A DNA stretch of 64,000 nt, taken from Naegleria gruberi. Its lineage: Eukaryota. Both the position numbers and the translations under genes were made by a program. Of the stretch, positions 5,001 to 64,000 are shown piece after piece (the first letter of the stretch is position 1; each line of letters begins with the position of its first letter). The notes below the pieces were generated by a model. That model saw only the letters and a program-made list of their open reading frames with translations. It ran no database searches and was not told where the DNA came from. Location of the stretch: NCBI GenBank assembly GCA_000004985.1, contig GG738877.1. One strand, 5' to 3'.

Positions 5001-5947
5001 ATTTGATATTTATTGGAATGAGATCCAGTCCTTCCAAGTGAGCTCGGGTGGATATGATATTTAATCTTTTCATTAAAATATTAAACCTTCCTTCATGTAA
5101 TTCTTCAAAACTAGTTGTTTTCCAATACATAATCCTCCAAATGGGTTCATTCACTTTTGCCAATGATTAATTCAAAAAATTTTAGATGACTTGGTAATCA
5201 GATCTCATAATCCATAAGGCACACATGGTTCTGTATCCGAAACCAAGCCTCCACAGAAAAGCAAACAAGTATCAATGTAGCAGAGGAATAGTTGAACCCT
5301 TTCGAGACCAACTAAGATGAAGGTGAAGAGAAAGAGACCTGATCCGAATCGCAGTTTCGTGTTTAAAAGCGTAAAGTTGTACATCAGGTTGCAGAAGAGT
5401 AGTCATCTCCGAAAATTCAAACCTAAATTGAAAGTGTTCTTGGTGCAACTGTTCAACAATAATTGAGAGAACATGTGGTTTGAAATTAATAAAATATTTG
5501 ATTTTTACTAATTTTATAAAAAAGAAATAAAGATTTTTCTCTCTTTCTTAATGCCACCAATTTCCCGCCACTAACAAGACAGATTGTGAAAATGAAATAT
5601 TTAAACAATAACAATATCATGTGTTTTTTCTCAAGTGACTCCAATTTTACAACAGAAATATAAATGGAAAAGGAAAGTGGGTTATTAATGTTTGTTTGCC
5701 AAATGAACAATTAGCAAGTTGTTTCAGTTTTGAATAGTTCTTAAAAGAAAAGTAGATGCCAACTGTATTCTCTTGATGAAATTCTTTTGCACCATTAACA
5801 ACCACAAATTCCTTTTATTGGATAACCAGCATTGCATGTCATTCCAATTCTTTGATGTTTGACTTTTCAAGTCCCGTTAAAACCAACATTGAATGGTAGC
5901 AAGAAGCAATCATCAACATCATCCTTTATTCTCTACAACAAAAAAGA

Positions 5948-16818: not shown

Positions 16819-17977
16819 TTTTTCTTCCGCACAATTATACTATTTCTTTTCTTTGTGATTGGTTATTGTTTTTCAATCGAGTTGCCAAGTGTAGAATGTT
16901 CTTCTTATCTTGAAGAGAAAACTTCTTGTTCTACTACTGAATTATGTAAGGATTAATTCTCAACAACAAACACAGTGTTTGAGGTTTGTTGTTTGTTTTT
17001 TTGAGCTTTAAAATGAACCAACGACAAATTGAGAAAGTCGAGAGTTCAGATTAGAAATTCACTGGTCACAGTGAGGAATGAGGCAATATATTTGGCAAAT
17101 TGTTGGAAAAAGCTCCAATAATAAATTGCTCTGTCTTTAGAGGCACACGTATATAAAAGATAAGACACTTGAACAGTAAATGTTTAAATGTCTTAAACGG
17201 TTCCTGCAAGATAACAATAAGGGCGGTAAAACTCTTGTAAAAATCTTTCACTGAAAATGTTGTTGTACAGTATCAGAGAGGGTGACAATGATCTTGGACA
17301 CGTATTATTATTCAGCAAAAACGATTTGCTTGGGCAGTACTGCTTGTTGGTTGGTTGGCAGTAGAGAAAGAATTCTTTCACGTGTTGGATGTTTTTTTAG
17401 GTTTGTTTCCTTAATATTGACCGATCCAAACAACTATTAAAGCCATTCATGATGTATACGCAGTGCACAGAATAAATCAACATCACTATAGATTGTGAAG
17501 AGAGTTATTTCGTATTCAGTGGATTCGGTTGAATACATTGATGGATCTCCATTCAATGCCTCGCAGGAGGCTTTAGAGACAAGAAGGAAAGAACACAATT
17601 GATACGGTTTAATAGAGTCAATTGAGGGTATTAACCTTTCAATAATTTTGACAGTTTGATAGAGAGAAAATATCTACTAGGAACTTGTTCCAAATATTAG
17701 AGAGATGAATGTTTATTATTTCACAAAATGACAGATTGTGATGTATATACTTGATCTCTCTTGACAATTCCATCCGTGTTGTATGAGCGGGGATGAGATT
17801 GGATATTGAAGGTAATAGGAGTCAGTTTTTGGAAATCCCTTTTTGAATTTTTACAACGTATCAATTTTGTAACTTTTAATTATTAAGCAACAGTTTAATT
17901 AAGATCAATAGTAATATATTCTTGTTTTACAGAAATGCAAATCTAATTCTTCCAACTGTTGGTTAACAATCAAAAAA
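16819..17977. promoter_or_regulatory. ORF-free divergent intergenic region (about 1.16 kb) between PDK1 (minus) and DcpS (plus). It has a TATA-like tatataaaag and is locally GC-richer.
   Basis: No ORF of 60 aa or more on either strand. The flanking starts diverge. Nothing else visible here explains its size. Confidence 0.4.
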
Positions 17978-24349: not shown

Positions 24350-27300
24350 ATGCCTCTCAGTTTTAATGATCCTCGAGTTGAAGTCATCAAAGACTGGATT
24401 AAGCTCGCGTTCTCATCCACACTCTCTCAAATAAAGAACACAATAGACGTGCTTCATATGGATGATTGCGTTTCGAACTTTCTTGATGGAAATGAAACGT
24501 TTTTAGAAATTTGTCTTTTAGAAAATAATAAGGTTTGTATAGTACAATAGTTATTTTGTAGTGAGATGATACTAATGTTGTATAGTTGAAAATTTCTAAT
24601 GCAGCAACTGGAGTACAATACATCAATGAAATTCACTTCATCAAGAGAAATGAATATCCGATTCAATCAGTTGAGGAAATGAAGATGGATAGCAAGGAAA
24701 ATACAATTAAAGTAGGATCACTTACAAATAATGATTTATCTGCAGGAGTAGACCTTCTTAAAATGTTGCAAAAAGTTTATGGTCCACTTCTCTCAGGAAA
24801 TTCAAAAATTAGTAACCCAACAATTCAAAATTTAATGAACCAATTAGAAATGGGACTTCAATCACTTGTACAGAAACAAACTAATGAGAGGATTAAAGAA
24901 TCAGAAGATTCTGAACAATATTTTTTCCTTACACCTCAAGAAGAATTTCAATACTGGAGCGACACTAGTTCAAGAAGTGAACAGGCCCAACAAATTCATG
25001 ATATTCTAGACCAAAAGAACCTTCTATCAGATTTTTCAAGTCTTCATCAAAAAAATTTAGATGATTTGATTGGAGAGTATGGTTTAATTGACAAGGTAAA
25101 GGATGCTGTGGATTCGATATGGGTAGAGGTTTTGGATCCTAAACCATATCCTGAAGGCAGAATGAAACGTTTGTTGGATGTAATTGGAGGTTCTATCGGA
25201 AGGTTTATTCAAATGAAAATCGGTCAAGTTGATATTTGGCGAGATGATTACCTTTCCATAAAGAAAAAGTTGGACTCTGGTATTGAAATTTGTTATCACT
25301 GGTTAAAAACAGTAGAGGAATTAATTACAATATGGCAAAACGAAGGAAGTCATAGATGGAAATCAGGAAATACAAAAGATATATTTATTCAACAATTACT
25401 ACAAAGATTAGAAGAAATTGAACGTATTAGAAGTAGCTACGAACAATTAGCAAATAATTTATCAGCAGAAGAATGTGCTAGAATTGATTGTTTCTCTCCA
25501 TTTTCAGGTTTAAATCCAGTTTTTATTACTCCATATTCTGAACAATCTTGGAAATCTGGTGTTGTTAGATTTGAAGAAATAATTGAACCTCTTGAAAAGA
25601 GAATTTCCGAAAAGTTAAGAACCAGACTTTCAGCTCTTTCATCAAAACCATTACTATTGTTATTGGAATTTGATAAGAATAGAGATTTAATTAGAAGAGA
25701 CAATGTTAAGAAAGAATTAACTCAAGAAAGAGCTACATTACTAGGACAACTCAGAGCTCACGTACAAACACTCAAAGCAGATTTGGATAACCAAAAATAT
25801 GAAAGTGGAACAAACTCTGATATTGTTAGAAGGATTGTTTCTGTAAAACAAATTGAAGAAAAAATCAAATCTACAATCATTACTGCAGCAACATTTTTGG
25901 ATGATTTACCTGAATCCACAAAATTACAAGAAATTTGTAATTCCATCCAAAATGAAGTTGAAACTTTTATTAATTCAGAAAAGTCTAAATGGGAAAAAGA
26001 AGTTGAAAGAGCAAAGGATGATCTTTCACTGAATGGATCAATGATTAGCCTAGATAGAAATAAGAAAATGGTTGTAAATTATAACGAACGTCTTATTTCA
26101 CTATTAAGAGAAGTAAGACAATTATCAGTTCTGGGATTCCAGTTATCTTCAAGTGTATTGAAGTTAGCAGAGGAAGCAAAGGACTTTTATACTCAAGCAA
26201 TTGCTTTAAAACAAATCGCCAATTTTTATAACAATGTCCATACACAAGTTATTAAGAGTCAATCTTCAATGCTTATTGATGCTGCCTCAAATTTTGAAAG
26301 AGTTATTTTTGAATTCCAAAAAGAGGATAAATCATGGAGCAAGGCTAATGGTGAAAAATATATTGCAAAATTGAAGAGTGCTGCAGAACAATTCACTACA
26401 GAAAATAGAAAATTGAGAAAGTATCACATTCTTATTGGTGATAAAGTTGCTCAATTGATGAATATTGATTTATTAAGAGAAAAAGAATCTTGGGTTGGAA
26501 AAGTTAATGAAATTACCAAAATATTTTCATTTTTGAGAACCCAAAACTATACCAATATGGACAGCTGGAAAGTTCACTGGGATTATAATATATACAAATC
26601 TCTAGATTACCAATATAAAGTTGGTCTTGAAACCTTGAATGAACAATTGCCAGAAATCAAATGCGAGTTAGTTTTCAAGGATAAGAGAGTTCAATTTTCT
26701 CCTGCTTTTGAAAAAATCAAACAAACATACTACGAGAAAATGAGAGATTTTATTGCCTTCCCAGTAATATTTAGAGGCCTAAGCGAGATTGATATTTTCA
26801 AAAATATCACCTATACTAACAATGAAGGAATCAAAACAGTTTACCATAAGGCAACAATTTTATTCACTAGGTTGGCAAAGGTAAAGAAACGTTTTGCTGA
26901 CTATGTTATTTTGGGAATGGTAGATAACGAACTTGAAGAAATTGTTTCACAAACTTTGAATGATACCAATCAATGGGAAGCAAACTTTAGAATGATAAAG
27001 GAAAAGGGTAAGGAAATTGAAAGACTTGAAAATGTTATCAAGATTGATTGTATTTCTGTATCAACAGATACTATCAAAGATACCATTCAAGATCAATTAC
27101 AAAAACTAGGTGATTTACTTGTAAAGACTTTGAGAGCTAAAACTCAAAAACATCTTGATGTTATTGAGCAGTTTATTGTTCAATCATTGGCAAGCTTGTT
27201 GAAGGATCCTCAAAGTATGGATGAAATAGGTAAATCACATGCATACTGTAGAAAACTAAGTGAGGAAAAGTCTGTTTTCTATGCAGAGTTTGATAACTTT

Positions 27301-30300
27301 GAAAAGAAGAATAGATTATTGAGAAGTGTTGCTGGTGTTGCAATTGATGGTTCCTCTATTAAAGAAAAATGGAATGATTTCGATGATACATTACAGGCAC
27401 ACGAACTCTACTTGAAAGATAAGACCAATAACCTTCAAAAGGAAGTGGAGGCAAAACTTATCAATTTCAAGGGAGAACTGGCCAAGTTTGCAAGCAAATG
27501 GCACGAGTTGAAACCTAAGGATAATAGCTTTGTTGATGCTGAAAGTTCAAAGAAGCAAATTGCCTTCATTAAAGAAAAGAGAGAATCATTCCAAGAATTA
27601 CGAAAGAGAGGTGATGAAATCTTAACAGAATGTTCATACTTTGGTGTAATTACACAACCACCAAAGGAATTGACAGAAATTGATGAAGATATTGGTAGAT
27701 ATGAAAAGATTTGGGGTATTTATGAAAAATTCCTAAATGACTTGGAAAAGTTGACATCACAAGAATGGCTTGTTTTCAAAAAGCAAATATTTTCATTCGA
27801 AGATTTTGTTATGGAATGGATTTCTGAATTGAAGGAAAAGGACAAGAATAGTATTACTTTATACATTAGAGAGGAGATTGAAAAGTACAACCAATTCAAG
27901 GATTACTTAAAGTTCATTACTGGTGATGGTTGGCAAGCTGAACATTGGGATAGCTTCTTCAGATTGATTGGTTTAGAAAAAGTTACAGTAGAAGATTTAA
28001 AGTTTGGTCATTTACTACCAAGATCTGCAATTATTATTGAGAAAATTAATAGTATCAAGGAATTGAGTTCTAGAGCTACAGGTGAACAACAAATCAGAGA
28101 CGCCCTCAATGAACTCAAAGCGTGGGGTCTTTCTACAGAGTTTTCTACTTTCGAATACAAGGGTAACAACAAAGTACTTCAACTCATTAAGGAGTGGAAG
28201 GATCTTTTGACTCAAATTGGTGATAACCAATCACTTGCTCAATCTATCAAGGATTCACAATGGGCAGAACCATTCATTGAAGAAATTAAGTCATGGGAAC
28301 TCAAGCTTACCAATTTGGCTGAATATTTGGATTATTTAATGGCCATCCAAAGAAAGTGGTTATATCTAGAACCTATTTTCTCTAGAGGTTCACTTCCTTC
28401 GGAACAACAAAGATTCAATCGTTTAGATAAGGACTTTATTGATATTATTACCAATATCAATGATAAAGGAGGTATTGGTAAACGTGTAGTTATGTTGGAT
28501 AGAATTATTGGCTTGAAAGATAGATTGAAGGGTATTTCTGATGGACTTGATGTTTGTCAAAAGGCTCTTAACAAGTTCTTGGAAGAAAAGAGAAGCGCAT
28601 ATCCAAGATTCTATTTTATTGGTGATTCTGATTTGTTAGAAATTCTTGGTCAATCACAAAACCCAACAGTTATCCAAACTCACCTTAAGAAATTGTATGC
28701 AGGTATTTACAAAGTCCAATTCAATAAGGAACAAGATACAATTATTGCCATGTGCAGCAGTAAGGGTGAAGTTGTACAACTTAAACAACCTGTGAAGATA
28801 ACTGACAAGGTAGAGCAATGGTTAGCCAACCTAGATCAACAAATGATCTTAACCTTACAACAACTTTTATTAGAATGTGATAAGTCAAAGGAATTCGATA
28901 TGGATGCTTTCCCATCCCAAATTCTTTGCTTGCAAGAAAGTGTGAGCTTTACAAGAAAATGTGAACTTGCTATTCAAAACAATGCTTTACCACAACTTTT
29001 GAACAGTGTCAAGTCTCAATTAAGTCAATTTACATCCATCAATGCTAAAGATGACGAAGTTGTTTCTATGAAAGTTAAAGCGCTTATTCTTGATATTATC
29101 CACAATATTGATGTTGTTCAATGTCTTATTGATGGAAACGTTTCTTCTATTCAACATTGGTTATGGCAAAAGCAACTTAGATTTTATATTGAAAATGGTA
29201 AATGTGTAATCAAGATGAGTAATGCCAAGTTTGATTATACTTATGAATATCAAGGAAATGTTTCTAAACTTGTACACACACCATTAACAGATAAGTGTTA
29301 TTTGACTTTAACACAAGGTATGCTTTTAGGTTATGGTGGTAATCCTTATGGACCTGCTGGTACAGGTAAAACTGAAAGTGTTAAAGCGCTTGGACATCTT
29401 TTTGGTAGACAAGTATTGGTTTTCAACTGTGATGAAGGTATTGACTTTAACAGTATGGGTAGAATTTTCATAGGTCTTGTAAAGTGTGGTGCTTGGGGTT
29501 GTTTTGACGAATTCAACAGATTGAAACCAGATCAATTGTCAGCTATTTCACAACAAATTCAAACTATCCAAGTTGCCATTAAAGAAAAATCAGCAAACCC
29601 AATAGAAATTCTTGGAAGCAAAGTTAAAGTAGATTTGAATGCTGGTATTTTCGTTACCCTCAACCCTGCAGGTAAGGGTTATGGTGGTAGATCTCAACTT
29701 CCAGACAACTTGAAACAATTGTTCAGAGCTGTAGCAATGGCTGCTCCAGATAATGAATTGATTGCTGAGGTAATCTTGCTTTCAGAAGGTTTTGAACATG
29801 CCAAGTTTTTGGGTAAAAAGATTGTCAGTGTATTCCAACTTAGCAAACAATTATTGAGTTCACAACAACACTACGATTGGGGCTTGCGTTCTCTCAAGAC
29901 AATTCTTAACATTGGTGGATCTCAAATTAGACAATCTAAAAAACATGGAGCTTCCCTTTCCAAGGAAGCAGAAGCTCAAATCGTTATTAAGGCTCTTCGT
30001 GTTAACACTCTATCAAAACTCACTCATAAGGATGCTGTTCTATTCAATGGAATTATCAAGGATGTATTCCCTGGTATTGATGCTCCTGATATTTCTTACA
30101 TTGAATTGGAAAGAGCTATCAAGGAAGTAATGACAGAGTTGGGATTGATACCGATTCCAAATATGATCAAGAAAATTGTTCAATTCTATGAAGCATGCAA
30201 ACAAAGAATGGGTGTAGTACTTGTTGGTCCTAGTGGTTCTGGTAAGACAACTATCTGGCATGTTCTTTCAGAAGCCCTTAAGAAAATTAATCAAAAGCTC

Positions 30301-33300
30301 AAGAGTTATGTTGTAAATCCAAAGGCAATGCCAAGACACCAACTTTTGGGTCACATGGACATGGATACTAGAGAATGGTTTGAAGGCATTATTACAGCTA
30401 ACTCTCGTATTATTTTGAAGGAAGAGCCAGATGTCATGTCTTGGATGGTTTGTGATGGTGATATTGATCCAGAATGGGTTGAATCATTGAATTCTGTTCT
30501 TGATGATAACCACTTGCTTACAATGCCAACAGGTGAAAGAATTCAATTCGGTTCAAATGTTAACTTTATTTTCGAAACTCACAGCCTCAAGTTTGCTTCT
30601 CCAGCTACTGTCAGTAGAATGGGTGTTATCTTCTTGTCAGATAATGATGTTGATGTAAAGAGCTTTGTACATGCATGGATGAATAGACATGAAGATTTAA
30701 CTGATAATTTAAAGTCACTGGTTGACAACTATTTCTACCAAGCTTTAGATGCTGTTCTCGCTGTTGATCAAAGTGAGTTTGTTATTGAGTCTACTAGTAT
30801 GGGTATTATAATGAATGGTTTATCACATATAACTCCTGATATTTCTACAAAGGGAGAATTTGCTAATTCATTGGTTAAAGGTTTGGGATCATCCTTAAAT
30901 ATCAAGGCAAGAGAAAAGCTTGCAAAGGATATCTATACACTTTGTTCTGAAAGTTCACTCGATTTGAGAAGACCTCTTGATTATTACTACTCTAAACATG
31001 ATTCCTGTTATACCCAATACTCTTTCACTGATTCTGAAGAAATTACATATGAAAGTCTCCAAAATAGTCCTATGATTAGAACTGTAGATATTCAAAGAAC
31101 AACAGATATTATTTATCCTTGGTTACACAATATGGAACCTTTCATTCTTGCTGGTCCTGAAGGTGCAGGTAAAGGTATGCTCTTGGAAAATCTTTTCCTC
31201 GACTTGCACTCTGTTCAAATTGCCAGAATCCACTGTAATTCTCAAACTAATGAGAGCCATGTTATTCAAAAATTGAATCAAACTTGTGCTGTATTCACTA
31301 CAAACACTGGTCGTGTTCTTAGACCAAGAGAAGGAGAAAGACTCATTTTGTTCTTGAAGGATATTAACTTGCCTTGTCCAGATAAGTATGGTACAACCCA
31401 ATTAATTTCCTTCCTACAACAACTTATCACATACAATGGCTATTATGATGATGAACTAAAGTGGGTAGGTTTAGAAAGAATTCAAATTGTTTGCTCTATG
31501 AATCCTGCCACAACTGTTGGTAGATATGAGCTTACAACCAGATTTACATCTATTGTAAGAATTGCTTACATGTCATACACAGACAAGCAACAATTGAAAC
31601 AAATCGTATTTACTTATCTCAAATGTGCTCTATCTAAAGAATTTTCAGGACACGCTGTTTGGAAGCAAACACAAAATATTGATTTGTTGACTGAAGTTAT
31701 GATTGATTTGTATGATAGTGTTTCTAAGAAGTTTACTGTAGATGAATATGCTCATTACCAATTCACTCCAAGAGATCTCACTAGATGGATTCTTGGTTTA
31801 TTGAGCTTTACTATTCCTGCTTCTAGTAATAGATGCACAGAACTTCTAGATGCTTGGACTTATGAAGCAAGAAGAATCTTTAGAGATAAACTTGTAAAGG
31901 ATATTACAGCCTTTGATAATATGGAAGCTGCTATTCATATGAAGTTAGAATCTATTGGATACTCACCTAAGATGCTTGGTAAAATTCTCTTCACTACTTT
32001 GGCATCCAGTGACAAGAAGCGTATGCTTTGTCCTGCCAAGACACTTGAATTTGGTAACTATTTGGGCTACTCTGGAACTGCTAAGAGAAGTAATCTTAAA
32101 AAGACTGCTCTACAAAGCTTTGAAAGAGAAAACAGACCATTGCGTTTGTTCTTTATTCCTGAAATTGTTGAATATGTAGCCATGATAGATAGAGTTCTCT
32201 GTAAAGATGGAAATTCTTTACTACTCGTAACCAAACAAGGCATTGGTAGTAGTGATATGGTTGCCCTCGTTTGTCACCTTCTCAAGTTTGAGCTATTCAT
32301 TCCAAAGATGGTTGTTGGCTACTCTAGCAAGCATTTCAAGAATGATGTTAAAGCTGTTATTCAAAAAGCTGCACAAAACGAAAAAGTTTGTCTTATCCTT
32401 GAAGACCACCACATGACTGACGTTTCACTTTTGGAATATGTTAATAGTCTTCTCAGTTCTGGTGAAATTCCAGGTCTCTTTACCAAGGAAGAATTAGAAA
32501 TGATTCTCTCTTCTATCAAAGATGAAAGTTCAAGAGAAGGAAATCAAAGTATGAGTCCTAATGCTATCTTCATCAAACGTGTAGTTAACAACATGAGAAT
32601 AGTTTTATTGATGGATCCTGATAATAGTAACTTTGATATGAAATGTAGATCAAATCCTGCCATCTTTACAAAATGTTCAATCATTTGGAAGGATAATTGG
32701 TCCGCAGAAGGAATTCAACAAATTCCAAAGATGATTATAGATGAAAATGACTTGAAGACCCTATCTCTTAAACCAGATGAATTCATGCAATTGTTCGTTA
32801 ATATTCACGATACTTGTACTGAAAGAAAAGCAACCCCTCTCCATTTTATTAACTTTATTGATACATTCAATAAGACTTTACAAAAGAAGAGATCTGTTAA
32901 GCAAGAACAACAAGAGCACTTGAACAAGGGTTTATCAAAGTTGAAGGAAGCATCTAAGAGTGTTGATGAATTGTCTAAGAAAGCTGAAGTACAAAAAATA
33001 CAACTCAATGAAAAGCAAGAACAAAAGAAGATTGCCCTTACAGAAATTCAAAAGAGTATGCAAGAATCAGTCAAGGAACAAAATGATATTGAAAAGCTAA
33101 AGGAGCAAGTCAAGGTAGAAGATGTCAAGCTCAACGAAAAGAAGAGTTTCATCAATGGAAAACTTTCAAGTATTGAACCTCTTTTGGAGAGTGCCAAACA
33201 AGCTGTCGGTGCATTAACACCAAAAGAAATATCTGAAATTAAGAGTTTACAACAACCTCCAATTATTATCAGACAAATTTTGGAAGGTGTAGTTAGATTG

Positions 33301-36300
33301 ATGGGACAAAAGGATTGGAATTCTTGGAAGGGTATCCAAAACTTCTTGAATCGTATGGGTGTTAAGGATCAAATTATGAACTTTGATGCATCAACTGTAG
33401 ATAAAAAGGTACTTGATGATATCAAGAAATATCTTGCCGGTGAAGGTGCAGAATCATTCCAACCTGAAGTTGCTGCCAGAAGTAGCAAGTCAGCTTTACC
33501 TCTCGCAAAATGGGTTACTGCCAACGTTGAATATGCTGAAGTCCTCCAACAAGTTGGTCCACTTAAAAGAGAAATGGAAATTTTACTTAAATCTCAAGAA
33601 GTATTGAACAATCAATTGGCTCAATGCGAGAGTAAACTTAATACCCTCAATGAGAAGGTCAAATCTTTGCAAGATGAATACGAACAAAAGACACAAGAAG
33701 CTGAATCCCTCAAGTTTGGACTCCAACAAGCCGAAAAGACACTTTCATCAGCTAAGAGTTTGATTGGAAAACTTGGAGGTGAAAAAGAAAGATGGGAACA
33801 ACAACTTGATGCATTGGCAAAAGAAATGAAAGATATGCCATACCAAGCATTATTAGCTTCATCATTTATGACTTACCTTCCTGATGCCCCAGAAAATGTT
33901 AGAAAGGAATATATTGAAAAATGGAAGATTATTGCTAATATGAAGTCATTTGACTTCCGTTCATTCATGAGTACTGAAAGTGAAATGCTCCAATACAAAG
34001 GTGAAGGACTTCCTGGTGATGAACTTTCAACAGAAAATGCTATTGTTATTTTAGAAAGTATTAAGCATCCACTTATCATTGATCCATCCAGAAGAGCTGT
34101 TGAATGGTTAAAGACTCACTTGATGAATAAGAGCGTAGAATGTACAACTTCCCATGATACCAAGTTTAGTACAACTTTAGAATTGGCAGTGAGATTTGGT
34201 AAGACATTAATTGTTGAAGAAGTTGATCAAGTCGATCCAATCCTCTATCCACTTTTGAGAAATGAAATTATTGTACAAGGTACTAGAAAATCCGTAGTGG
34301 TAGGAGAAAAGACTGTTGATTACAGCGAAGATTTCAAGATTTATCTTGTAACAAGAAATCCAAATATTTCCCTTACACCTGATGCTTCTCCTCTTGTTAC
34401 TGTTGTCAACTTTACTGTAACAAAATCTGGTCTAGAAGGACAATTATTGAGTCAAACCTTACAACATGAAAACCCAGAAATCGAACAAAAGAAGAGTATG
34501 TTGTTGAAGAAGGAAGAAGAAAACAAGATTCAACTTAGTGATTTAGAAAAGCAACTCTTGAATGAATTAGCATCATCCAAAGGAAATCTACTTGAGAATG
34601 AATCTCTTATCACTAAATTGGCTGAAATTAAGAAGAAGAGTCAATCTATTGTTAGCAGTTTAGAAGAATCTAGTAAGACTATGAAGGAATTAGAAACAAA
34701 GAGAGATCAATATCGTCCATTTGCTGAAATGGGTAGCAACCTTTTCTTTATCATTTCTGATATGAAGAACATTAATAGAATGTACCAATTCAGTCTCTCT
34801 TCATTCATCAAGCTTTTCGATCAAGCTTTAACTTCAAGATTAGACAAGGCATCTGATGTTAATTTGAGAATTACCCTATTGAAACAAGAATTGAGTAAGA
34901 TTGCCTTTACCTACATTACTAGATCTTTATTCAAGGAGGATAGACTTTTATTTGGTATGCATATGGTTCGTGGTCTATTCCCATCAATGTTCAATCAACA
35001 ACAATGGAACTTCTTTATTGGTAATGTTTTGAAAGAAGCACCTACAGGAACACAAACTCCAAATTGGATTCCTCAAGATAGAGTCAAGACATTCCAACTT
35101 CTTTCAGCATGCCTTCCTGAAACCGTTAGCAAGCTTCAATTTGGTAACAGTGAGAAGTGGAAACATTGGTTAACTTCAAAGGAAGATGCTGTTTCATCAT
35201 TCCCAGTACCTGATAATTCCATCAGCTATGCTGAAAAGGTTCTTGTTATCAAAACTTTGAAACCTGATCAATTGTTTGTTGTTATCACAGATTTGGTCAC
35301 AAAGACTTTGGATATCAAGTCATTGTCAACCTCATTAAAACTTGCCAATATCCACAAGCAAGAAAGTAATTGTGCCGAACCTATTTTACTTATTACTACT
35401 GCTGGTGCTGATCCTTCACAAGAATTGAGACAAATGGCTCTTGATGTTGCTGGGGAAGCCAACTTTATTGAATTGGCTATGGGTCAAGGTCAAACAGAAG
35501 AGGCTATCCAACTCCTTAGAAAATGTACAAGAGAAGGAAAATGGTTGTTCTTGAAGAATCTTCACTTGGTAGTTTCTTGGCTTCCAACTTTGGAGAAAGA
35601 AATTGCTGTCCTTTCTGATGTAAATGAAGGATTTAGATTATGGTTGACCACCGAGACACATGATGAATTCCCAATCATTTTACTCCAACAAAGCTTGAAA
35701 TTAACATTTGAATCTCCTCCAGGAATCAAGCAAAATATGCTCAGAACCTTTGAATCACAAAATGTTACTGAATTCAAGGCATACGGAAAGAATCGTATGA
35801 GATTGTCTCTCCTTTTGGCTTGGTTCCACTCTGTTGTACAAGAGAGAAGAACATATATCCCTCAAGGTTGGTCTAAATTCTACGAATTCTCTTCTTCAGA
35901 TTTCAGAGCTGCCTCAGACATTATTGGAGCTGCAATTGAGAACGAAAATCCAGAATGGAATACTATTCTTGGACTTTTAGAAAATGCCATTTATGGTGGT
36001 AGAATTGATAATAAGTACGATGCCAAGATCTTGAGAGCTTACCTCACCAAGTACTTTAATCCAAATGTTCTTAATAATAAGGAATCTCTTTACACAAAGG
36101 GTTTATTCCTTCCTGATAATAATTCATATGAAGAATATATGAGATTTATTGAAAGATTACCAGATATTGATCAACCTGTTGTATTTGGTCTTCCACCTAA
36201 TGCTGATAGAGTTGTTCAAGTTTACAGAGGTAACAAATTAATAGAAAAACTCAAACATATTCATTCTATGAACCAATCACATCACTCCTTCAATAAGGAA

Positions 36301-37155
36301 GAATGGACTTCAAAATTAGTACCTATTGTACAATTGTGGAATGGACTGGTAAACCCTAACAGATCCGTATTACTTCAAACTAAGAGAAATAATGAAGTGA
36401 TTAATGATCCAGTTGACTCATTTATTACTTTAGAAATGGATAATTCTCTTGATTTGATCAAATTTATTGATTCTGAAGTTCAAAAGATTAGTGAAGTAAT
36501 CAAGGGAGTTTCCTTGATTGATGCTATTATCCATTCCAATGGTCTTTCTCTCATGGGTGGTTCAATTCCTGAAAGATGGCAACTTAAATGGGAAAATGGT
36601 CCTGGTGACAATATTACTGTTTGGTTGAACGAAATTGTCTCAAAGACCCTCAAGTTGCATGAATGTTGTACACTCGTTTCCCAAGGTAAACTATTCTCCA
36701 AGCCTCTCGAGTTGAATACACTATTCAATCCTCACATCTTCTTCAATGCTCTCAAACAACAAACAGCTAGAAAATCTGGACTTCAACTTGATGACTTAAC
36801 TGTATTGACTGCCTCTTGGGGTAATAAGAATATTTCTGGTGTTTCACTCAAAGTTGCTATCAAGGGTATTGGTATTCAAGGTAGTGAATTTGATGGTACA
36901 CTTACCAGCATTTCATCTGATTCATCACCAGCACTTATTGAATTACCACCATGTGAAGTTTACTGGCTCACAGAAAAACAAGTGGAAGATTTGAAGCAAA
37001 AGAAAGAATTCCCACAAGTTACTCTGCCACTTCCAATCTATTATTCTACCAACAGAGAATTCACAGTTGCTGAATTAACTATGCCATGTAATTCTATTGT
37101 AGATGTTGACAAGTTTATTTTAACTGGTACAGCACTCTTTGTTGATACCCAATAA
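24350..37155 (+). CDS. DYNC2H1: Cytoplasmic dynein 2 heavy chain, the IFT retrograde motor (DYNC2H1), about 4250 aa. Two exons: 24350..24532 and 24586..37155, so 12.6 kb of effectively uninterrupted coding.
   Basis: The AAA1 P-loop region GPAGTGKTESVKALGHLFGRQVLVFNCDEGIDFNSMGRIFIGLVKCGAWGCFDEFNRL matches the dynein-2 signature QVLVFNCDEGID...VKCGAWGCFDEFNRL rather than the dynein-1 form. The N-terminus (SNFLDGNETFLEI; YPEGRMKRLLDVIGGSIGRFIQMKIG; LTPQEEFQYWSD) aligns with human DYNC2H1. AAA3 has GPSGSGKTT and AAA4 has GPEGAGKGM. The stalk and C-terminal domain are present. The 53-nt intron has a gtttgt donor and a tatag acceptor. Confidence 0.9.
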
Positions 37156-49013: not shown

Positions 49014-51386
49014 TTAATGTTGAGTTTGGCCTCTAGGTGTTGAAAATCTTGGTGTAAGCTTGAGTTGGTCAAAATCTATACTACTTGAGAGAGATTTGCT
49101 GTCAATTGACTTATTCAAAACATCTTTTGCTGTTTCTATTGAATCAGGATTCACTCTCTTCAATAGATATTTACTTCTTTCTAAAAGAGTTCTCTGAAGT
49201 TGTTTCTTTTCGGCCAATTCTTGCTTTCCCTTTTCAATCATTTCAACCTTCTTGTTCTTTTCCTCAATAACAGCTAATGCTTGGAGCTTTTTGAATTCTT
49301 CAACCCTCTTTGTTCTTTCAATTACTTCTGCCTTGTCCATATCTTTTAATCTTTGTTCTTCAGCCTTTCTTTGAGATTCTCTTCTAGCTTTCTCCAAAAG
49401 TTCCTTTCTAATTTGCTCTTCTTTTTGTTGTCTTGTTAAAATCTTTTCAACTTTCTTTTCAGTTTCTTCCTTATTCTTTTGAATAACTTCTAGTCTGTGG
49501 AATTCTCTGTTTTGTTCTTCTATTTTCTTTCTTTGGGTGAGCGTATTCTTTTCATTCTCAAATTTCTTTAATTGGTCTTCTGTCATCATGATTTTTTCAT
49601 TTATCTTATTCAGCTTTTCTTGTTCATTCAATTGTCCTCTTTGTTGTGCTTCTTTAACCTTTTTTTCTTTGCTCATAGCCCTTTGTTTAGTTTGGAGGAG
49701 AATTTTGCTCTTTTGGGTCTCAAATTCTTTCATTCTCTTTTCAAATTGTTCTTGTCTTTCAAGGAGAGATTGCTCTTTCAGTTTTTGATTCTGCTCATCT
49801 CTCATTTGGGTTTGTTTAATCTTATCATCCTTCTTTAACTTTAGCATATCAGTTTTACTCTTGGCATCCCTTAACCTAGCTTCAACTTGTTGTTGTCTTT
49901 TTTCATCTTTTTGATCAACAGATCTTTGCTTTTCAAGTTCTATTAATTTTCTTTCATTTCGTAATCTTTCCAATTCTTGTTGTCTTTCTAGTATGCTTTG
50001 ATCTCTCTTTCTGTTAGCTTCCATTTGTCTTTCCACTCTTTTTTGTCTTTCCTTTTCAATTCTTTCTTCTCTTTCTTTGAGTCTATTTTCTCTTTCTGCC
50101 AGTTTACGTTTTGAATCTATTTCATATTGTACTAAATGTTCAATATAGGTTCTGTTATGTTTGAATTGACTCTCTACCTTATTTTGTTCTTCTATCAGAA
50201 CTCTGTAAGAGTCTTCCATCCTTTCTTCTTCAAAATCAAATACACCTGAAATATCTTCATCCTCTATAATGATCTTTTGTCTTTCTTCCCTGACCATCAT
50301 GAGTTTTTCTTTTCTTCTGGTTTCATAGTGGGCCCATCTCATTTTACCAACCTCTTCAGAGACACCTTTGGTGAATTCTGATTCTGGTTTTTTCAAGAGT
50401 TCTAATGGGGTTATTCCTGTTCTCAAACATGCTTCAATACTTCTAGGAGATGTTAATAAAATTGGTTCTTTTGATTCCTCATCAAAACTTTCCAAACTTA
50501 TTACAGTCTTCCCATTATAACTCATTCCCATAGATTCTAGGGTTCTTTTCACTTCCAAAAAATCAGACATGCTTGCAAATGCTCCAGTTGCACCCTTAGT
50601 TGGAGGAGTAAACATTTTTGAAATTCTTTCTCTTGATTGAGATCTTCTTTTCGAATTCATTGCTCCAGGTCCTGTAGAAAGAGGATGTTTAGGAGAGAGA
50701 AGATTCAAGGACTGTCTTGTTGGAGTTTTTGGAGTTTTCTTTGGTTCATCAAATGTTGGACTGGCAGTAAAGTTTCTTTCAATTCTTTCCTTTTTGTCGA
50801 TAATTGGCTTGTCTGTGGAGTGAATTGGTTTAGATTTTTTAATCTCTTGACTATGGGAAACAGATGGTTGATTGATAGGATATTTTTCGTATCTTTGAAT
50901 AGGTGTTGAAGCTTTTGGTGATCGATTAGGAGGAAGTGAAAGCTTTGGGACAAATGAAGGAACCTTATATTGAGAGTTACCAAATGATGGACTCTCCCTT
51001 CTAATACTGTTTGTTGTTTGGGGGTGTGTTCGAGAAGGTGATGGCAGTCCCACCTTAATCAATGTTTTCGGTTTTTGTATTGCTAGTTTATCATGATAAA
51101 AATCCGAGCTGGAGTTTGCTCTAGGAGTAGATACATCATCAGCACTGAAATCATTACAATCATCCTCATAACTAGAAGTTTGATATTCTTCTTCTGTCTT
51201 TGATGATTCCTTAGTAGAGTTTTCCTCAAAAGATGATGATTGTTGATACTCCATAGTTGAATCCTCAGTTTCTTCTAGCATTGTTGCTGGTTCTTCTTGC
51301 TCACTATAATTATTGATTTCATGTTGAGGCTGAGAGTCTTCCGATGGTTCTTCACCATGGAAAGTCTTTGGCTCAGGTTGTTCCAT
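49014..51386 (-). CDS. Charged E/K/R/Q-rich coiled-coil protein with a trichohyalin-plectin-homology (TPH)-like repeat character, possibly ciliary. It has an S/T/P-rich N-terminal region. Single long ORF.
   Basis: The ATG at 51386 reads MEQPEPKT.... The middle contains SLESFDEESKEPILLTSPRSIEACLRTGITPLELL and KMRWAHYETRRKEKL. About 450 aa of ERxxRxKEREERIEKERQKRVERQ-type heptads follow. No catalytic motif is present. Confidence 0.45.
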   Translation of the reverse strand: MEQPEPKTFHGEEPSEDSQPQHEINNYSEQEEPATMLEETEDSTMEYQQSSSFEENSTKESSKTEEEYQTSSYEDDCNDFSADDVSTPRANSSSDFYHDKLAIQKPKTLIKVGLPSPSRTHPQTTNSIRRESPSFGNSQYKVPSFVPKLSLPPNRSPKASTPIQRYEKYPINQPSVSHSQEIKKSKPIHSTDKPIIDKKERIERNFTASPTFDEPKKTPKTPTRQSLNLLSPKHPLSTGPGAMNSKRRSQSRERISKMFTPPTKGATGAFASMSDFLEVKRTLESMGMSYNGKTVISLESFDEESKEPILLTSPRSIEACLRTGITPLELLKKPESEFTKGVSEEVGKMRWAHYETRRKEKLMMVREERQKIIIEDEDISGVFDFEEERMEDSYRVLIEEQNKVESQFKHNRTYIEHLVQYEIDSKRKLAERENRLKEREERIEKERQKRVERQMEANRKRDQSILERQQELERLRNERKLIELEKQRSVDQKDEKRQQQVEARLRDAKSKTDMLKLKKDDKIKQTQMRDEQNQKLKEQSLLERQEQFEKRMKEFETQKSKILLQTKQRAMSKEKKVKEAQQRGQLNEQEKLNKINEKIMMTEDQLKKFENEKNTLTQRKKIEEQNREFHRLEVIQKNKEETEKKVEKILTRQQKEEQIRKELLEKARRESQRKAEEQRLKDMDKAEVIERTKRVEEFKKLQALAVIEEKNKKVEMIEKGKQELAEKKQLQRTLLERSKYLLKRVNPDSIETAKDVLNKSIDSKSLSSSIDFDQLKLTPRFSTPRGQTQH

Positions 51387-51589
51387 TTTCAATTTTTTTA
51401 AATCTTCAGTTGGTTTTTTGGAGCGGATTCAAGTTTTACAATTCAGAGAAGGTCAAAAGGAAGATAAAAAACGAACCACAAATGTTTTCTTTTTTTTTAA
51501 AATTTTTTTCTAACGGGTGACCACTTTGATGCCACATCAACTACTGATGATTAACACTGTGAATGGTTGCTACTGACGATTGCGAAATG

Positions 51590-52360
51590 AATCACAAAGC
51601 AGATATTTGGCTGATCTTTCTTTAATGCACTCTGTGTATTAAGGCCATTTTTGAACACTTAACAGCCCATGCTCTTGGAAAGCTAGGTTTGAGGTGCATC
51701 TTCTTTTTAAGGTTTGTACTGGCAGGTTGAGTAGTAGCACTATGATACCTGTTGAAAAGAGATAATAAAGGGATAAAGCAACAAAATCTTAAATTTCTTT
51801 TAAGAAAGTGAAATTCAACTTCTAATCAAGGAAAGTTGACTTTATTTTAATTGAACTTCAAATTATCTTTCTTCAATTCAGGCTTATTTTGATTATTCTT
51901 CAAGTATGGTTGCACTGAAATCTGTTCAATATTGGAAAAAAGTAGATTTTAGTGCAAGATTTTTTCCTAGACTTTTTACTTGAAGAATTTTCATCCAGAG
52001 TTAGAGCTGGATTTTGAGCTGCATAAATGCTACAAAATACTGTTAACTATTAAAGAAAGAAATCGCCTTGCTTTGATGCAATATTAAGACCGTTTTTGAA
52101 CATTGTGGCTTGCATTCCTTATCGTCTATGCATTCTTTCATCAAGTGCATTACAGTTATTAAACAATACACTCATCACCAACGGTCGTGATTCTGAATTA
52201 GAGAAGTGGTTCTTCTTTTTAAAGTTTGAGCGTTGAATGACAGGGCATGTTTTGGTCAGATTACGATTTTATTACATTTCATTCCCTTGTGTTACTTGCT
52301 GATCTTTTATGTGTAGCGAAAGAGATAATCAAATTTACATAGTAATCAAAAGAAAAAAGA
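51590..52360. repeat. Diverged tandem duplication: unit A is about 51590-51790 and unit B about 52020-52360 (with an insertion). It lies inside an ORF-free 1.2 kb divergent intergenic region.
   Basis: Shared collinear blocks are attaaggccatttttgaacac / attaagaccgtttttgaacat, cttctttttaaggtttg...gcaggttgagtag / cttctttttaaagtttgagcg...gacagggcatg, and gaaaagagataataaag / gaaagagataatcaaa. There is no ORF of 60 aa or more on either strand between 51393 and 52593. Confidence 0.5.
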
Positions 52361-52593
52361 GTGCCTATTCATTTGGCCTTTATTAGCTCAGCCATTTAGT
52401 TGAAAAGCTTTTAAATTAGTGGTTCATGATTTGAGGAGGAACGCAAACAGAACGATAGGAGCATCGTGCCTCAAACTTTTTCATTTACTTTTTAATAAGA
52501 TAAACCTACCAAAATAATTCTATTACACCCGCGTCTGTACATTCCATTGGCGGGAAGTCTTCTATTGAACACAATTATCAGCTGCTATAAAAA

Positions 52594-55232
52594 ATGAATG
52601 AAAACAAAATTTCCCTCCCACACATACAATTTTCATTCCCTGAGCTCTCATCATCGATAGCTCCATCTGTTTCTGAAGTATCACTAACAGAAATCCAAAA
52701 GAATGCTCAGGTATGTAATTTTTAAAATCGTTTTGTATTAAGAATTGTATTATAAATCATACATGATTAAAATATAGAAAAAAGGACAATTATTGGAGAG
52801 GTATCTAGTGGATGAAAATTTAGGAGAAGTCGAACGAGCTGTTCTTCTTCTTTCATCAGGTACTTCTGTACAAAAATGTTCCGTACTCGAAAATCTTCCC
52901 TCTCTTTTTCAAAGACAACAACAAGCTGTTTCGCGAATAATACTTCTCTTTTCTGTAGGTTTTTAGTTGCGATTATTGCTTAATGTTTGTAATAGGATAA
53001 AATCAACAAAGAGGATGAGGATACACAAATTATGATTGGAGATTATCTTGTTCCTTGCTTTCCTTTGATGTCTGGAGAAAATTTGAAAGAGCTGTTCCCT
53101 CTTCTCCAATCAATGATTAATAACGCTAAGGATCATGTATCTTCTGTTTTTCAAGATGTTTTAATTCTTGCAGTAGAACATATCCCTATTGGGTTATTGG
53201 AAAATGAAATCATACCTTTTGCTATTCAGAAGGGTAGTCTCTCGGAGTCTGAACAGAATAGATGTTTTTGTGTCAGATTGTTTGGAGCCTTGTCCAAGAG
53301 GTTTACATTCCAAACAATTAAGGATCATTATCTCCAAAAAATCATTGATTTATGTCAAGATACATCCTTCTCTGTGAGGAAAACAATGGCCATAGAGATT
53401 CTAAATATTTCTAAAGGGCTGGGGTAAGTTTATTTACATGCTTTTGTTATTTATTGTAATTTATTCCAGACCAGAGAAAACAAAACAATACTTGTTATTA
53501 GAACTTATTCAATTAGTTAAGGACGAGACAAAATTAGTGAGACAAGCTGCTATAGAAACACTAACCAGCCTGTTAAGCTTTTTTGATGAAAAATATAGAA
53601 TTGATTACCTTCAAAAGTTCTACATCAACTGGATTAAATCACCACCAAGTGACCTCTACAGAACATTGGTTGAGCGTTTTGGAGAAATTTTCTTCTACTT
53701 GTGTTTCAAAGATGAAGGTCATCTCTCTTATCTTATTCAGTTCTTTGTGAACGCTTCAAAAGATAACTCACAAGAAATACGAGAATTTTGTGCATTCAAC
53801 TTTCCTGCTGTTGTGAAATGTGTAGGGTCCAAAAGATACGAGAAACAGCTTCATAACTGTTTGGTAGTGTTATGTGAGGATCCTTCGTCTCAAGTTAGAA
53901 TAAGGATTGCCTCTGGATTTCATGAAATTTTAAAGTTGTTAGCAGAGGATGGAACAGCAAAAGTACTGAAGAATTTATTCTTCTCTTTGCTTTCTGTAAG
54001 TAATCTTAAAATGGAAATGTTGTAACCTTAAAAGGATGTGAACAATGAGGTCAAGGACAAGATTGTACAAAACCTTACAACTATTTTAACATGCTTCAAG
54101 ACTGCTCTTGCTAAAACATCAGAACCATTTTTTGGTTTAGTAATCACTCACATCAACAAGTATCATAGTGGTGTTCAAAACAACTGGAGAAGATTGGAAA
54201 ACTACTTTTCTCACTTCCAACACTTCCACAAATACTTTTCTAAGGAACAAATCATTGAGACATTTATTCCAATTTTGAGGAAACAAATATTTGAAGGAGT
54301 TGCCATTCCAGTTAAACTTCAAGCAGCTTTATCTCTTGTTATTTTGACAAGAGGATTACATAACTTGAGCAGACAAAAGGACATTTTCAACTCATTGATT
54401 AAGGAGTTGGTAAACAGCAAATCATGGTGTAACAGAATGATGTTTTTCGATTTATGTCACCCTATTATGGAACATTTCAGTAGAAAATTCTCAAAAGAAA
54501 TACTGTTTGAAAATGTTATGAAATTGGAAAAGGATAAAATTGCAAATGTTAGGAGAAGATTTTGTTTCATGCTCCCAGAGCTAAAACAAACTTTGACATT
54601 GCCAGATGATGTTATTTTATTAGCAAAAATTAAGGAAAAACTTTCGTATTTGAGTTTGGATAAGGATCGAGATGTTAAAGAAGCAGCTGTCTCGGCTAAA
54701 AACATTCTCTCAATGATTGAAACGGAAACAAACAGAGGTTTTAGACTTAATCTTCAAACACAAGATGATATCAATGATAAACGAAAGGAAAGAGAGGAAC
54801 AAGAATGGCCAGATAAGGACTTCCTAATGACCTCACCTGTTCCAGTTATCAACTCAGCAAACAACTCCCCTCCTTCGACAACAAGTGGTCCAAGAAAAAG
54901 ACCACCTGCAACAACAAGCAATTCCAAAACAAATTTGAATATTCCAACTACATCAACTACAAAAACCAAATCTCCTAGTCCTTCTCCAACACCTTCTAAT
55001 CCTGTCAAACCAACAACTAACAAGACTGTTTCCACAGTAACAATTCCAACAACCACAACACCAAAACCAACGTAAGTTTTCAAATATTCAATTTTACTTA
55101 TTAATGAACAGAGTTACAAAACCTCTCCTGAAAGACTCCTCAAAACCCAAAAGCAAATCATCCCCAACACTCGCAACATTGGGCTCATTGTCTTCAGTAA
55201 GAACTACCTCCTCTCAATCCAAGCACCAATAA
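52594..55232 (+). CDS. PPP4R4: Serine/threonine-protein phosphatase 4 regulatory subunit 4 (PPP4R4, HEAT-repeat) with an S/T/P/K-rich C-terminal tail. Six exons: 52594..52710, 52778..52954, 52996..53423, 53470..53995, 54035..55071, 55112..55232.
   Basis: YLVDENLGEVERAVLLLSSGTSVQKCSVLENLPSLFQRQ aligns with human TVDEDLSDIERAVYLLSAGQDVQGTSVIANLPFLMRQ. QEIREFCAFNFPAVVKCV...LCEDPSSQVRIRIASGFHEILKLL aligns with ISVRKNCAYNFPAMIVFV...LCHDPEVPVRYTIAICFYEVSKLL. ANVRRRFCFMLPELKQTL aligns with ANVRMKLCYLLPKVKSTL. Introns are 40-67 nt. Confidence 0.8.
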
Positions 55233-62213: not shown

Positions 62214-64000
62214 TTATTTATTCATGTAGGTGTTGACTTGTTCTGTGATGGAATTCAAATCTAAGCCTAATAGGGTGGCAATTTTCTGACCGATATCAGT
62301 ATTTTCTTGATTTCCATTGAAGAGAGTTGAAGAAGGTCCATAACTGTAAACATTCACATCGACTGCAGTGTGACCACGAGTGGTAAATCCAATTCTAGCT
62401 CTTCTATTAATGACTTCATCAATGGCAAATAAGAATGGTGTTCTAATTGTTTGCATAATGTTAAATTCATCCATTGTAAGATCTGGAATACCATATGTAT
62501 TCAAAATTGAGGCAACTTGAGCAAAGTCAGTAGTGTTAGTAATTTTAGAGGCAATATATTCAGTTGACTTGGTAACTGCTCTAATCTTTTCAGTGTAGAA
62601 AATATATTGGTTAACATAATCGACATCTCTATTAATTGTTACACCTCCAGTTTCATGATCAGCAGTTGAAACAACTAAGGTATCTGGATTTTCCTTAATA
62701 TAATCCATTACATATTGGAATGCTTCATTATATTCGGTAACTTCTTGCCACTGACAGGAAATATCATTGGCATGGGCACTTTATGAATTATTAGTAAATA
62801 TTGAGAGTTGAATAACATACCAATGGTCAATTCTTGATCCTTCGACCATGAGGAAGAAACCACGATTCTTTTCAGTGCTTTCCTTTGTAATAAGTTGGAG
62901 TGCCTTCTTGGTCATTTCTGTAAGAGTTGGTTCCTTTTCAATTTCTTCATCATCTCTATCAATATTACTATTAATTTCCAACTTTTAATGAGAAAAGAAA
63001 TCATTAAATAACACATACTATTTCATTTCTTCCAAAGCAAATAATCCAAGAATTGGTAATTTTTCAATCTTGCTCAATTCATTTCTATTTTCAACATATT
63101 GATATCCAAGATCTTTGGCTGTCTATGAAAATTATTAAATTATTTAAAGATTTTTGAAAACTCACAGAAATGACGTCTGTTGAATCTTTTCTTTGACTTC
63201 CATCTGATTCCTTTGGTAAAAAGTATGCTCTGCCACCTCCCATCAATAAATCAACACCATATTTCTTAGTAGAGGTTCCAAAAATGTCAGATAACTGTTT
63301 AATTTGTTGGAAGGCAATGGTATCTTGTTTGTTTCTATGATCAACGTGTGCAGAAAATGCAGCTGGAGTAGCATCTGTCACAGGATTAGTAGCTACAAGT
63401 CCAGTAACCATTCCCTTCTTAATAGCAGCTTCCAACAATGTTCCACATCTAATTCCAATTCAATTCCAATTGATCAAATCAATAAACTTACGGTTTCTTA
63501 TTCTTATCAACTCCAATTGCATTATTGTAGGTCTTTTGTGCACATGAGAATGCAGTTGCTCCAGCAGCACTATTCAATCATTTCAATAAGAAGAAGATTC
63601 AATAAATATCCACAGAATTTTTCCACAATACACACATGAGCATTAGTAGGTCTATACTTACCTATCAGTGACATCAGAGGAGGATGAGTAAGTTTTTGAA
63701 GACCCAACCAAATACTTGTCCAATGCAAGTGTTGTGATTTTAGATGCTGAATTCTTCATCATGTATCGAGCAAAACTTTGGGCAGCAGGACCGAAACCAT
63801 CTGATAGTAGAATAAATTAATAGTATTGTGATGGATAATGAAAAAGTAGTTAGTACTAACCTCCAATCATGACTATCAGATAAATAGATAGTATTATTAT
63901 AATTATTATTGAAAATGATCATTAAACAGTTCAATCACAATGAATTATCATTATTCACAAACTTACAAATAATATTCCTTGGTTTTTGAGTAGTGTCAAC
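62214..64000 (-). CDS. Alkaline phosphatase family protein. Multi-exon, at least six, with blocks 62214..~62780, ~62822..~62990, ~63095..63445, ~63490..63568 and ~63655..63800. The N-terminal exon(s) and start are ambiguous and probably partly beyond the window end.
   Basis: DGFGPAAQSFARYMM aligns with LGDGMGVSTVTAARIL. KTYSSSSDVTDS|AAGATAFSCAQKTYNNAIGVD aligns with [52 protein letters not shown] aligns with [43 protein letters not shown] aligns with GFFLLVEGGRIDHGHHE. STADHETGG aligns with TADHSH. KNQGILF| at 63970 is followed by gtaagt and resembles AKNVILF upstream of LGDGMG, but I could not reconcile its phase with the next exon. Confidence 0.75.

Follow-up and report, generated by a model that had tools for sequence, protein, structure and literature searches.

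Small nucleolar RNAs (snoRNAs) of the box C/D class and the U24 type are described from yeast, in which snR24 targets C1437, 1449 and 1450 of the 25S rRNA (PMC4848094, PMC8609340), and from human, in which U24 is 76 nt long and targets C2338 and C2352 of the 28S rRNA (PMC3626359); the two U24 functions are divided among single-guide genes in fungi and mammals (PMC2780460). Here we describe a box C/D snoRNA gene, designated snoRNA1, in a 64,000-nucleotide stretch of Naegleria gruberi contig GG738877.1 (the window), together with two diverged repeat units, A and B, that occupy the same intergenic spacer. The target of snoRNA1 falls in the segment of the large-subunit (LSU) rRNA that we take to be the one on which U24/snR24 and U76/U24b act in yeast, fungi and human. 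Judging from sequence, we assign a probability of about 0.6 to the view that the spacer is a plus-strand box C/D snoRNA locus in which snoRNA1 is real and units A and B are tandem-duplicated guide-RNA genes, B possibly active and A probably degenerate.

The true intergenic spacer extends over 51387-52593, between a 790-aa gene on the minus strand and a HEAT-repeat gene on the plus strand. The same divergent pair (the 790-aa orthologue and the HEAT gene) brackets 821 bp in N. fowleri (contig L001) and 757 bp in N. lovaniensis (contig L003), and this conserved gene arrangement makes the orthologous spacers comparable. BLASTN and MAFFT analysis of the three spacers revealed only one common block, at window positions 51553-51576, while between N. 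fowleri and N. lovaniensis conservation runs from the C box (AUGAUGA) to just past the D box (CUGA), with diverging flanks on either side. The conserved block belongs to snoRNA1, whose features are as follows.

51541-51618, plus strand: snoRNA1, box C/D snoRNA gene of 78 nt, U24/U76-like by target, with boxes and guide conserved at the syntenic intergenic spot in L001 and L003
51544-51550, plus strand: C box cUGAUGA, which reads AUGAUGA in N. fowleri and N. lovaniensis (sequence reading and alignment)
51561-51572, plus strand: D' guide GAAUGGUUGCUA, 12 nt, antisense to LSU rRNA UAGCAACCAUUC and identical in N. fowleri and N. lovaniensis
51573-51576, plus strand: D' box CUGA, invariant across the three Naegleria species
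51588-51594, plus strand: putative C'-like box UGAAUCA, degenerate, UGGUUCA in the other two species
51611-51614, plus strand: D box CUGA, closing the conserved block on its 3' side in each of the three species

A C box near the 5' end and a D box near the 3' end, the arrangement that defines the box C/D class, are thus present in three species. The weak Rfam matches at snoRNA1 are all to C/D families and all on the plus strand, and all lie below the gathering score. The terminal stem comprises at most 3 bp in N. fowleri (GAG/CUC), and neither the window nor N. lovaniensis shows an evident one. No orthologue was within reach in more distant relatives (L059-L061). At the level of sequence comparison, these features demonstrate that 51541-51618 is a canonical, unannotated box C/D snoRNA gene that is kept at one syntenic position across three Naegleria species.

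The target prediction of the snoRNA1 guide, TAGCAACCATTC, was derived before any rRNA sequence was examined. To obtain Naegleria rDNA, we scanned metagenome data with the Naegleria small-subunit (SSU) 3'-end primer site, which yielded 52 rDNA contigs; both Naegleria internal transcribed spacer primer sites are exact in 13 of these. One contig, L041 (environmental Naegleria rDNA, 14.4 kb), contains a complete LSU and 5.8S along with an SSU whose intron bears a GIR1 branching ribozyme (202.7 bits), the twin-ribozyme intron known from Naegleria. The predicted 12-mer occurs in the rRNA-sense orientation in 16 rDNA contigs of Naegleria type, always at one fixed position of the LSU. In L041 it corresponds to nt 1455-1466 of the LSU, and the guide forms 12 of 12 possible Watson-Crick pairs with it directly upstream of the D' CUGA, fitting the Naegleria-specific variant UAGCAACCAUUC of this LSU segment. 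Perfect rRNA complements of at least 12 nt adjoin CTGA at 2 of the 465 such boxes in the window, and the antisense-rRNA control also gave 2; for a box singled out beforehand by its cross-species conservation, as the D' box of snoRNA1 was, the chance of such a match is p ~0.004. The second such box of the window is located at 63290 on the minus strand, inside a coding exon that has no C box; we treated its 12-nt match as chance. Duplex energies computed with RNAduplex failed to discriminate even in the case of snoRNA1 and were not used. Functionally, snoRNA1 would assemble with fibrillarin and the other core proteins and would direct 2'-O-methylation of the A in UAGC-A-ACC at LSU ~1459 (environmental Naegleria rDNA numbering), within the UAGCAACC segment of the N. 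gruberi LSU; this residue was placed by the fifth-nucleotide rule.

We compared snoRNA1 with a U24/U76 set consisting of yeast snR24, human SNORD24 and SNORD76, and N. crassa CD50/CD51. The likeness comprises the box C/D architecture, the length of ~76-78 nt and, probably, a 12-nt D' guide directed against LSU UAGCAA(A/C)(U/C)AUUC. At the snoRNA1 target, the yeast and human LSU presumably reads UAGCAAAUAUUC, at sites that would be equivalent (yeast 1449/1450, human 2350-2352). Relative to human U24, the snoRNA1 guide is one nucleotide nearer the D' box; as a result, the predicted methylated residue is the A after C and not the A/G/C modified in yeast or human, so that it adjoins the known U24/U76 sites without being identical with them. 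The second guide of the dual-guide form of U24, against GAUCUUGGU(A/G)GU (GAUCUUGGUGGU, yeast C1437), is not present in snoRNA1, which contains no ACUACCAAGAUC. The SNORD24 and SNORD76 Rfam models gave no match at the gathering score or at E values up to 10, even with a 91-nt query. SnoRNA1 is also intergenic, unlike U24 with its intronic setting. The missing second guide and the lack of a match to the SNORD24/76 models together indicate a new C/D snoRNA that would work like U24/U76 instead of a demonstrated member of that family.

The spacer had first drawn attention for other reasons. The original prediction, made from the letters of the window alone, had described it as free of open reading frames (ORFs) and as containing a diverged tandem duplication of a ~200-nt element, and had proposed that the two copies were themselves structured small RNA genes or a repeat relic. 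The ORF-free stretch was confirmed: the longest six-frame stretch of the window without an ORF of at least 60 aa is 51393-53031, of which 51387-52593 represents the intergenic part. The proposal of a small RNA gene also stands in so far as the spacer contains a box C/D snoRNA and one of the repeated blocks is antisense to rRNA. The clear gene, however, is snoRNA1, which had gone unrecognized and lies 5' of copy A, overlapping it by only ~28 nt; nor do the copies qualify as "structured", copy A showing no fold signal. The repeat units and the structure that lies between them are as follows.

51637-51657, plus strand: unit A block 1 (UAUUAAGGCCAUUUUUGAACA), 19 of 21 positions identical to the B copy, identical in allele L004
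51691-51716, plus strand: unit A block 2, 22 of 26 positions identical to B (52203-52228)
51756-51769, plus strand: unit A block 3 (AAAGAGAUAAUAAA), 13 of 14 positions identical to B
52082-52102, plus strand: unit B block 1, altered at its 3' end in one allele
52203-52230, plus strand: unit B block 2, with the repeat match at 52203-52228
52319-52332, plus strand: unit B block 3, direct repeat of unit A block 3
51885-51995, plus strand: long imperfect hairpin between the units, with arms 51890-51906/51977-51993 and 51910-51923/51944-51957

Three collinear, diverged direct-repeat blocks are therefore present as claimed (19/21, 22/26 and 13/14), and the local alignment of A with B scores above all 1000 dinucleotide shuffles. 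The ~200-nt copies hold up only as far as these blocks extend: outside their ~60 nt, units A and B do not align. The offsets between corresponding blocks (445, 512 and 563) describe a unit B with two expansions, of +67 and +51 nt, in place of the single insertion of ~90 nt that had been proposed, and the divergent allele L004 does not retain the segment '...caggRttgaRtag' that had been quoted as belonging to the middle block. The arrangement is not strictly head-to-tail either, since ~250 nt containing the long hairpin separate the two units; Tandem Repeats Finder detected no such array and reported only an 11-nt micro-repeat of 1.9 copies. No third copy of the units was found in the 64-kb window or in two 22-kb orthologous loci. 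Alignment of unit B with snoRNA1 gave a weak, non-significant resemblance, hinting at common ancestry.

The middle block is the part of the repeat that connects it to rRNA. The spacer contains five segments on the plus strand, and none on the minus strand, that are perfect complements of at least 11 nt to Naegleria rRNA, a count that shuffled sequences reach in 0.4% of trials. Apart from the guide of snoRNA1, the strongest of these matches is 52218-52230, which lies inside unit B block 2 and pairs with LSU CUCAAACUUUAAA (nt 1056-1068 of the L041 LSU), a site found in 30 of 37 rDNA contigs; unit A block 2 pairs with the same LSU site. The elements that could constitute guide RNAs in the two units are listed below.

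52065-52246, plus strand: unit B as a candidate non-canonical C/D-type guide RNA, with putative boxes
52218-52230, plus strand: unit B guide candidate UUUAAAGUUUGAG, antisense to LSU CUCAAACUUUAAA at 13 of 13 positions
52065-70/52241-46, plus strand: unit B 6-bp terminal stem GCCUUG/CAGGGC, resembling a C/D terminal stem
52074-79, plus strand: unit B C-like UGAUGC, 3 nt past GCCUUG
52233-36, plus strand: unit B D-like UUGA, 2 nt (CG) after the 13/13 guide
51706-51716, plus strand: unit A guide candidate, antisense to LSU CAAACUUUAAA over 11 nt with one G.U pair, followed by UA and CUGG

Canonical C/D boxes were found in neither unit, B having UGAUGC and UUGA and A having UAAUGC and CUGG (UUGA in allele L004). 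Perfect rRNA complements of at least 13 nt occur at a rate of ~1.7e-4 per position on the plus strand, which places the chance of a 13-mer within the blocks at p ~0.01-0.03 (~50 window positions); rRNA matches of at least 13 nt adjoin TTGA at 3 of the 1521 such boxes in the window. On the proposed reading of the spacer, units A and B would be lineage-specific products of tandem duplication of guide-RNA genes, a step with moderate support, and the conserved middle block would be a guide against LSU CUCAAACUUUAAA. Unit B may be active, given its plausible C/D-type architecture (UGAUGC, UUGA and the 6-bp stem), with a predicted target Cm at ~1058; unit A, having lost the G-A of the C box, would be degenerate, and the spacers between the blocks would be unconstrained and very fast evolving.

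Other candidate elements in and around the units were considered and rejected. The likeness of block 1 to the sense strand of yeast rRNA (GGCCAUUUUUG) is a coincidence, as Naegleria rRNA differs there. A second C/D candidate with its D box at 52299-52302 has a C-like UGAAUGA and a guide with one mismatch and three G.U pairs, which is at noise level. On the minus strand, the B-specific spacer at 52088-52187 contains a 7-bp stem (GACCGUU/AACGGUC) and a C box that is perfect (GUGAUGA), along with a second, UUGAUGA, and it gives weak Rfam matches to snoR26 and SNORD79 (E ~0.5-1.6). We rejected it as a C/D gene, as a D box was not found and allele L057 carries a mutation in the C box; this may be a defunct snoRNA that faces the other way.

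The LSU site of block 2 has a further antisense match in the window. Within the dynein-2 heavy chain ORF (24586-37155, plus strand, PF08393 region), 28013-28029 (TACTACCAAGATCTGCA) is complementary at 17 of 17 positions to LSU UGCAGAUCUUGGUAGUA, which directly abuts the snoRNA1 target and which we take to be the second U24 target site. Six nucleotides upstream of this 17-mer, 27995-28006 (ATTTAAAGTTTG) is complementary at 12 of 12 positions to the LSU site of block 2. The 17-mer is the sole rRNA match longer than 14 nt in the 121 kb examined, with ~0.05 expected by chance in the window. C/D boxes were not found at 27995-28029, which is ordinary, alignable coding sequence (codons 'DLKFGHLLPRSA'). 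These exon matches, 23 kb away, might result from antisense elements being copied from one locus to another.

Divergent alleles of the spacer provided a second view of the units. In the flanking genes, two contigs from one metagenome sample, L004 and L057, match the window at 99.9% identity, whereas across window 51665-52320 they carry two different, strongly diverged mosaic versions (L004, 1-698; L057, 1-520) that differ by unalignable segments of 25-40 nt and by insertions and deletions (indels) of 8-24 nt. The region 51665-52320 is a hot spot of local polymorphism or, alternatively, a place where haplotypes are divergent. The A/B blocks fall on the islands that are conserved among these alleles, and block 2 of unit A forms a small conserved island flanked by two hypervariable segments. 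Two substitutions fall within the candidate elements of unit B: G52078A, found in two alleles, is at C-box position 6 and changes the G.U to an A-U pair with the first U of UUGA, and A52223G, found in L057, replaces the guide base opposite a target U such that pairing is kept as G.U. Separately, the segment 51852-51887, after the 51799-51876 inverted repeat, aligns to L004 better as its reverse complement (score of 4 versus -2), which suggests a small inversion polymorphism in a hairpin loop.

This variability bears on whether the units have any function. Units A and B could be a functionless relic, left by an old segmental duplication, by decayed snoRNA pseudogenes or by a mobile element, whose blocky conservation arose from a recombination mosaic of haplotypes. 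Such decay would be in keeping with the degenerate boxes, those of A especially, with the large indels between the copies, with the very high allelic variability here (including indels and the probable small inversion), with the weak and non-significant resemblance of B to snoRNA1, and with the C-box-like motif and 7-bp stem on the minus strand of the B spacer, which lack a D box and are broken in one allele. It is harder to reconcile with the persistence of the same short blocks, both between paralogues and between alleles, amid sequence that cannot be aligned, or with the complementarity of block 2 to rRNA in both copies. The mobile-element version, which the original prediction had offered as a terminal-repeat or transposon relic, gained no support within the window, where neither flanking (terminal) inverted repeats nor further copies were found. 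We regard a functionless relic as doubtful.

A structured RNA of another class, either a small nuclear RNA (snRNA)-like transcript of the Sm class or an H/ACA RNA, would be suggested by the Sm-site-like motif in block 1 (AUUUUUGA / GUUUUUGA), by the H-box-like AGAUAA in block 3 and by the strong hairpin between the units. The fold of 51780-52010 is indeed more stable than expected (z = -3.05), and the 51885-51995 hairpin is the same in L057 and partly compensated in L004. The hairpin has, however, an asymmetric loop of 3 nt and 19 nt and neither an H nor an ACA box. In H/ACA RNAs the guide pocket is located 14-16 nt from the box, whereas block 2 sits 43 nt from AGAUAA, and single-hairpin AGA-box and H/ACA models applied to block 3 and to the 51885-51995 hairpin were discarded for misfitting geometry. 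No stem-loops are predicted beside the Sm-like AUUUUUGA, and A has no fold signal of its own. The Rfam search that had been suggested as a check found no family at the gathering score in the window and, in the spacer and its sub-regions, only sub-threshold C/D matches at E values up to 10. No snRNA, H/ACA, MRP/P, 7SL or U3 model matched at that level, save for U6 at 51410-51496, which scored 14.9 bits against a threshold of 44. Another RNA class is highly improbable as an explanation of the units.

A number of the observations weigh against the interpretation of the spacer as a snoRNA locus with duplicated guide-RNA genes. Units A and B are lacking at the syntenic loci of N. fowleri and N. lovaniensis. 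On neither strand is the fold of copy A better than that of its shuffles (z of +0.15 and +1.08), and the UAAUGC of this copy is without the G of the critical G.A pair, leaving no credible C box. The boxes of both units are non-canonical and were chosen after the fact. The LSU site of block 2 has an AT-rich sequence and picks up chance matches in an AT-rich genome, while blocks 1 and 3 have no rRNA target above the antisense control in ungapped scans of three Naegleria rDNA units. As for snoRNA1, a terminal stem is not clearly present, and no rRNA complement of at least 10 nt was found for its D guide. Finally, no Rfam family scores above threshold anywhere in the window.

The genes that flank the spacer, and the motifs that lie in front of them, raise the remaining alternative. 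The window has a base composition of 33% G+C, and its introns are short and of the GT-AG type. The relevant features are as follows.

49014-51386, minus strand: gene of the 790-aa coiled-coil protein, an intronless ORF
52594 (start), plus strand: HEAT-repeat gene, intron-containing
51474-51509, no strand assigned: upstream motif AACCACAA with a T-run/TTTAAAA, at similar spacing in N. fowleri and N. lovaniensis

The 790-aa protein is 51-52% identical to its orthologues in N. fowleri and N. lovaniensis, which marks the window as nuclear DNA of Naegleria, probably from the N. gruberi group. Its exact sequence is not on record, the homologues being N. fowleri, N. lovaniensis and metagenome entries with none named from N. 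gruberi, and the gene may be unannotated, or differently modelled, in the reference. The motif at 51474-51509 could be a promoter element of snoRNA1 or of the 790-aa gene. AACCAC/GTGGTT occurs at 51474-51481 and 52421-52427, upstream of each of the two divergent protein genes and in the sense orientation, and is also found in N. fowleri (L001, ~9830 and ~9270) and N. lovaniensis, with the T-run/TTTAAAA adjoining the first window copy; it may be a promoter element common to both genes. A tRNA/tmRNA scan found none. Elsewhere in the window, ATG-started ORFs of at least 60 aa are likewise wanting in 5001-5947 and 16819-17977, and the first of these ORF-poor regions contains a 13-nt rRNA complement (5572-5584) near which C/D boxes were not found.

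In such a setting, the repeated blocks could act as DNA, as cis-regulatory modules duplicated within the divergent promoter and acting on snoRNA1 or on one of the flanking genes (790-aa or HEAT), with the LSU match of block 2 arising by chance. The blocks do lie in a bidirectional promoter region in which another motif, GTGGTTC/AACCAC, occurs upstream of both genes and in other species; they are kept among divergent alleles yet have no RNA fold signal, blocks 1 and 3 lack an rRNA target, and the chance probability of the 13-mer is only ~0.01-0.03. On the other hand, the near-identical blocks, at 21-26 nt, are longer than factor sites tend to be, and both units are oriented like the adjacent snoRNA and not mirrored towards the two genes. 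The antisense element of block 2 survives A/G changes that preserve pairing with U, and the blocks are not found in the same promoter of N. fowleri and N. lovaniensis. We therefore consider a regulatory role unlikely, and retain the duplicated guide-RNA genes as the preferred account of units A and B.

A bolder version of this account is that A and B are both active, lineage-specific, non-canonical (UGAUGC/UUGA) guide RNAs, born by tandem duplication beside a U24-like gene and retargeted to CUCAAAC, with divergent haplotypes segregating; this we hold to be quite improbable. If units A and B do derive from guide-RNA genes, the locus would capture guide-RNA birth and turnover in progress, and the duplicates in their hypervariable spacer would amount to a natural experiment, on a small scale, in how snoRNA genes arise and decay. 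No Naegleria snoRNA gene is described in the searchable literature, and Rfam models miss snoRNA1, which thus provides a first anchored Naegleria example with gene, boxes, guide, target and orthologues. It can seed covariance models and a modification map for the Heterolobosea, a deep eukaryotic branch. It also indicates that the U24/U76 segment of the LSU is served in this lineage by a guide that co-evolved with the lineage-specific rRNA sequence. The finding is ordinary in kind and leaves the view of how snoRNAs work unchanged.

Beyond U24/U76, the closest parallels to the locus as a whole are the tandemly duplicated snoRNA gene clusters known in Euglena, trypanosomatids and plants. Unlike those clusters, only one unit here has canonical boxes, the array is irregular, and a single-hairpin AGA-box H/ACA-like partner is not recognizable. 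In common with them, several guide-RNA units would share one spacer in the same orientation, and paralogous units retain conserved islands of guide and box sequence between fast-evolving spacers, a pattern that suggests birth and death of guide RNAs by local duplication.

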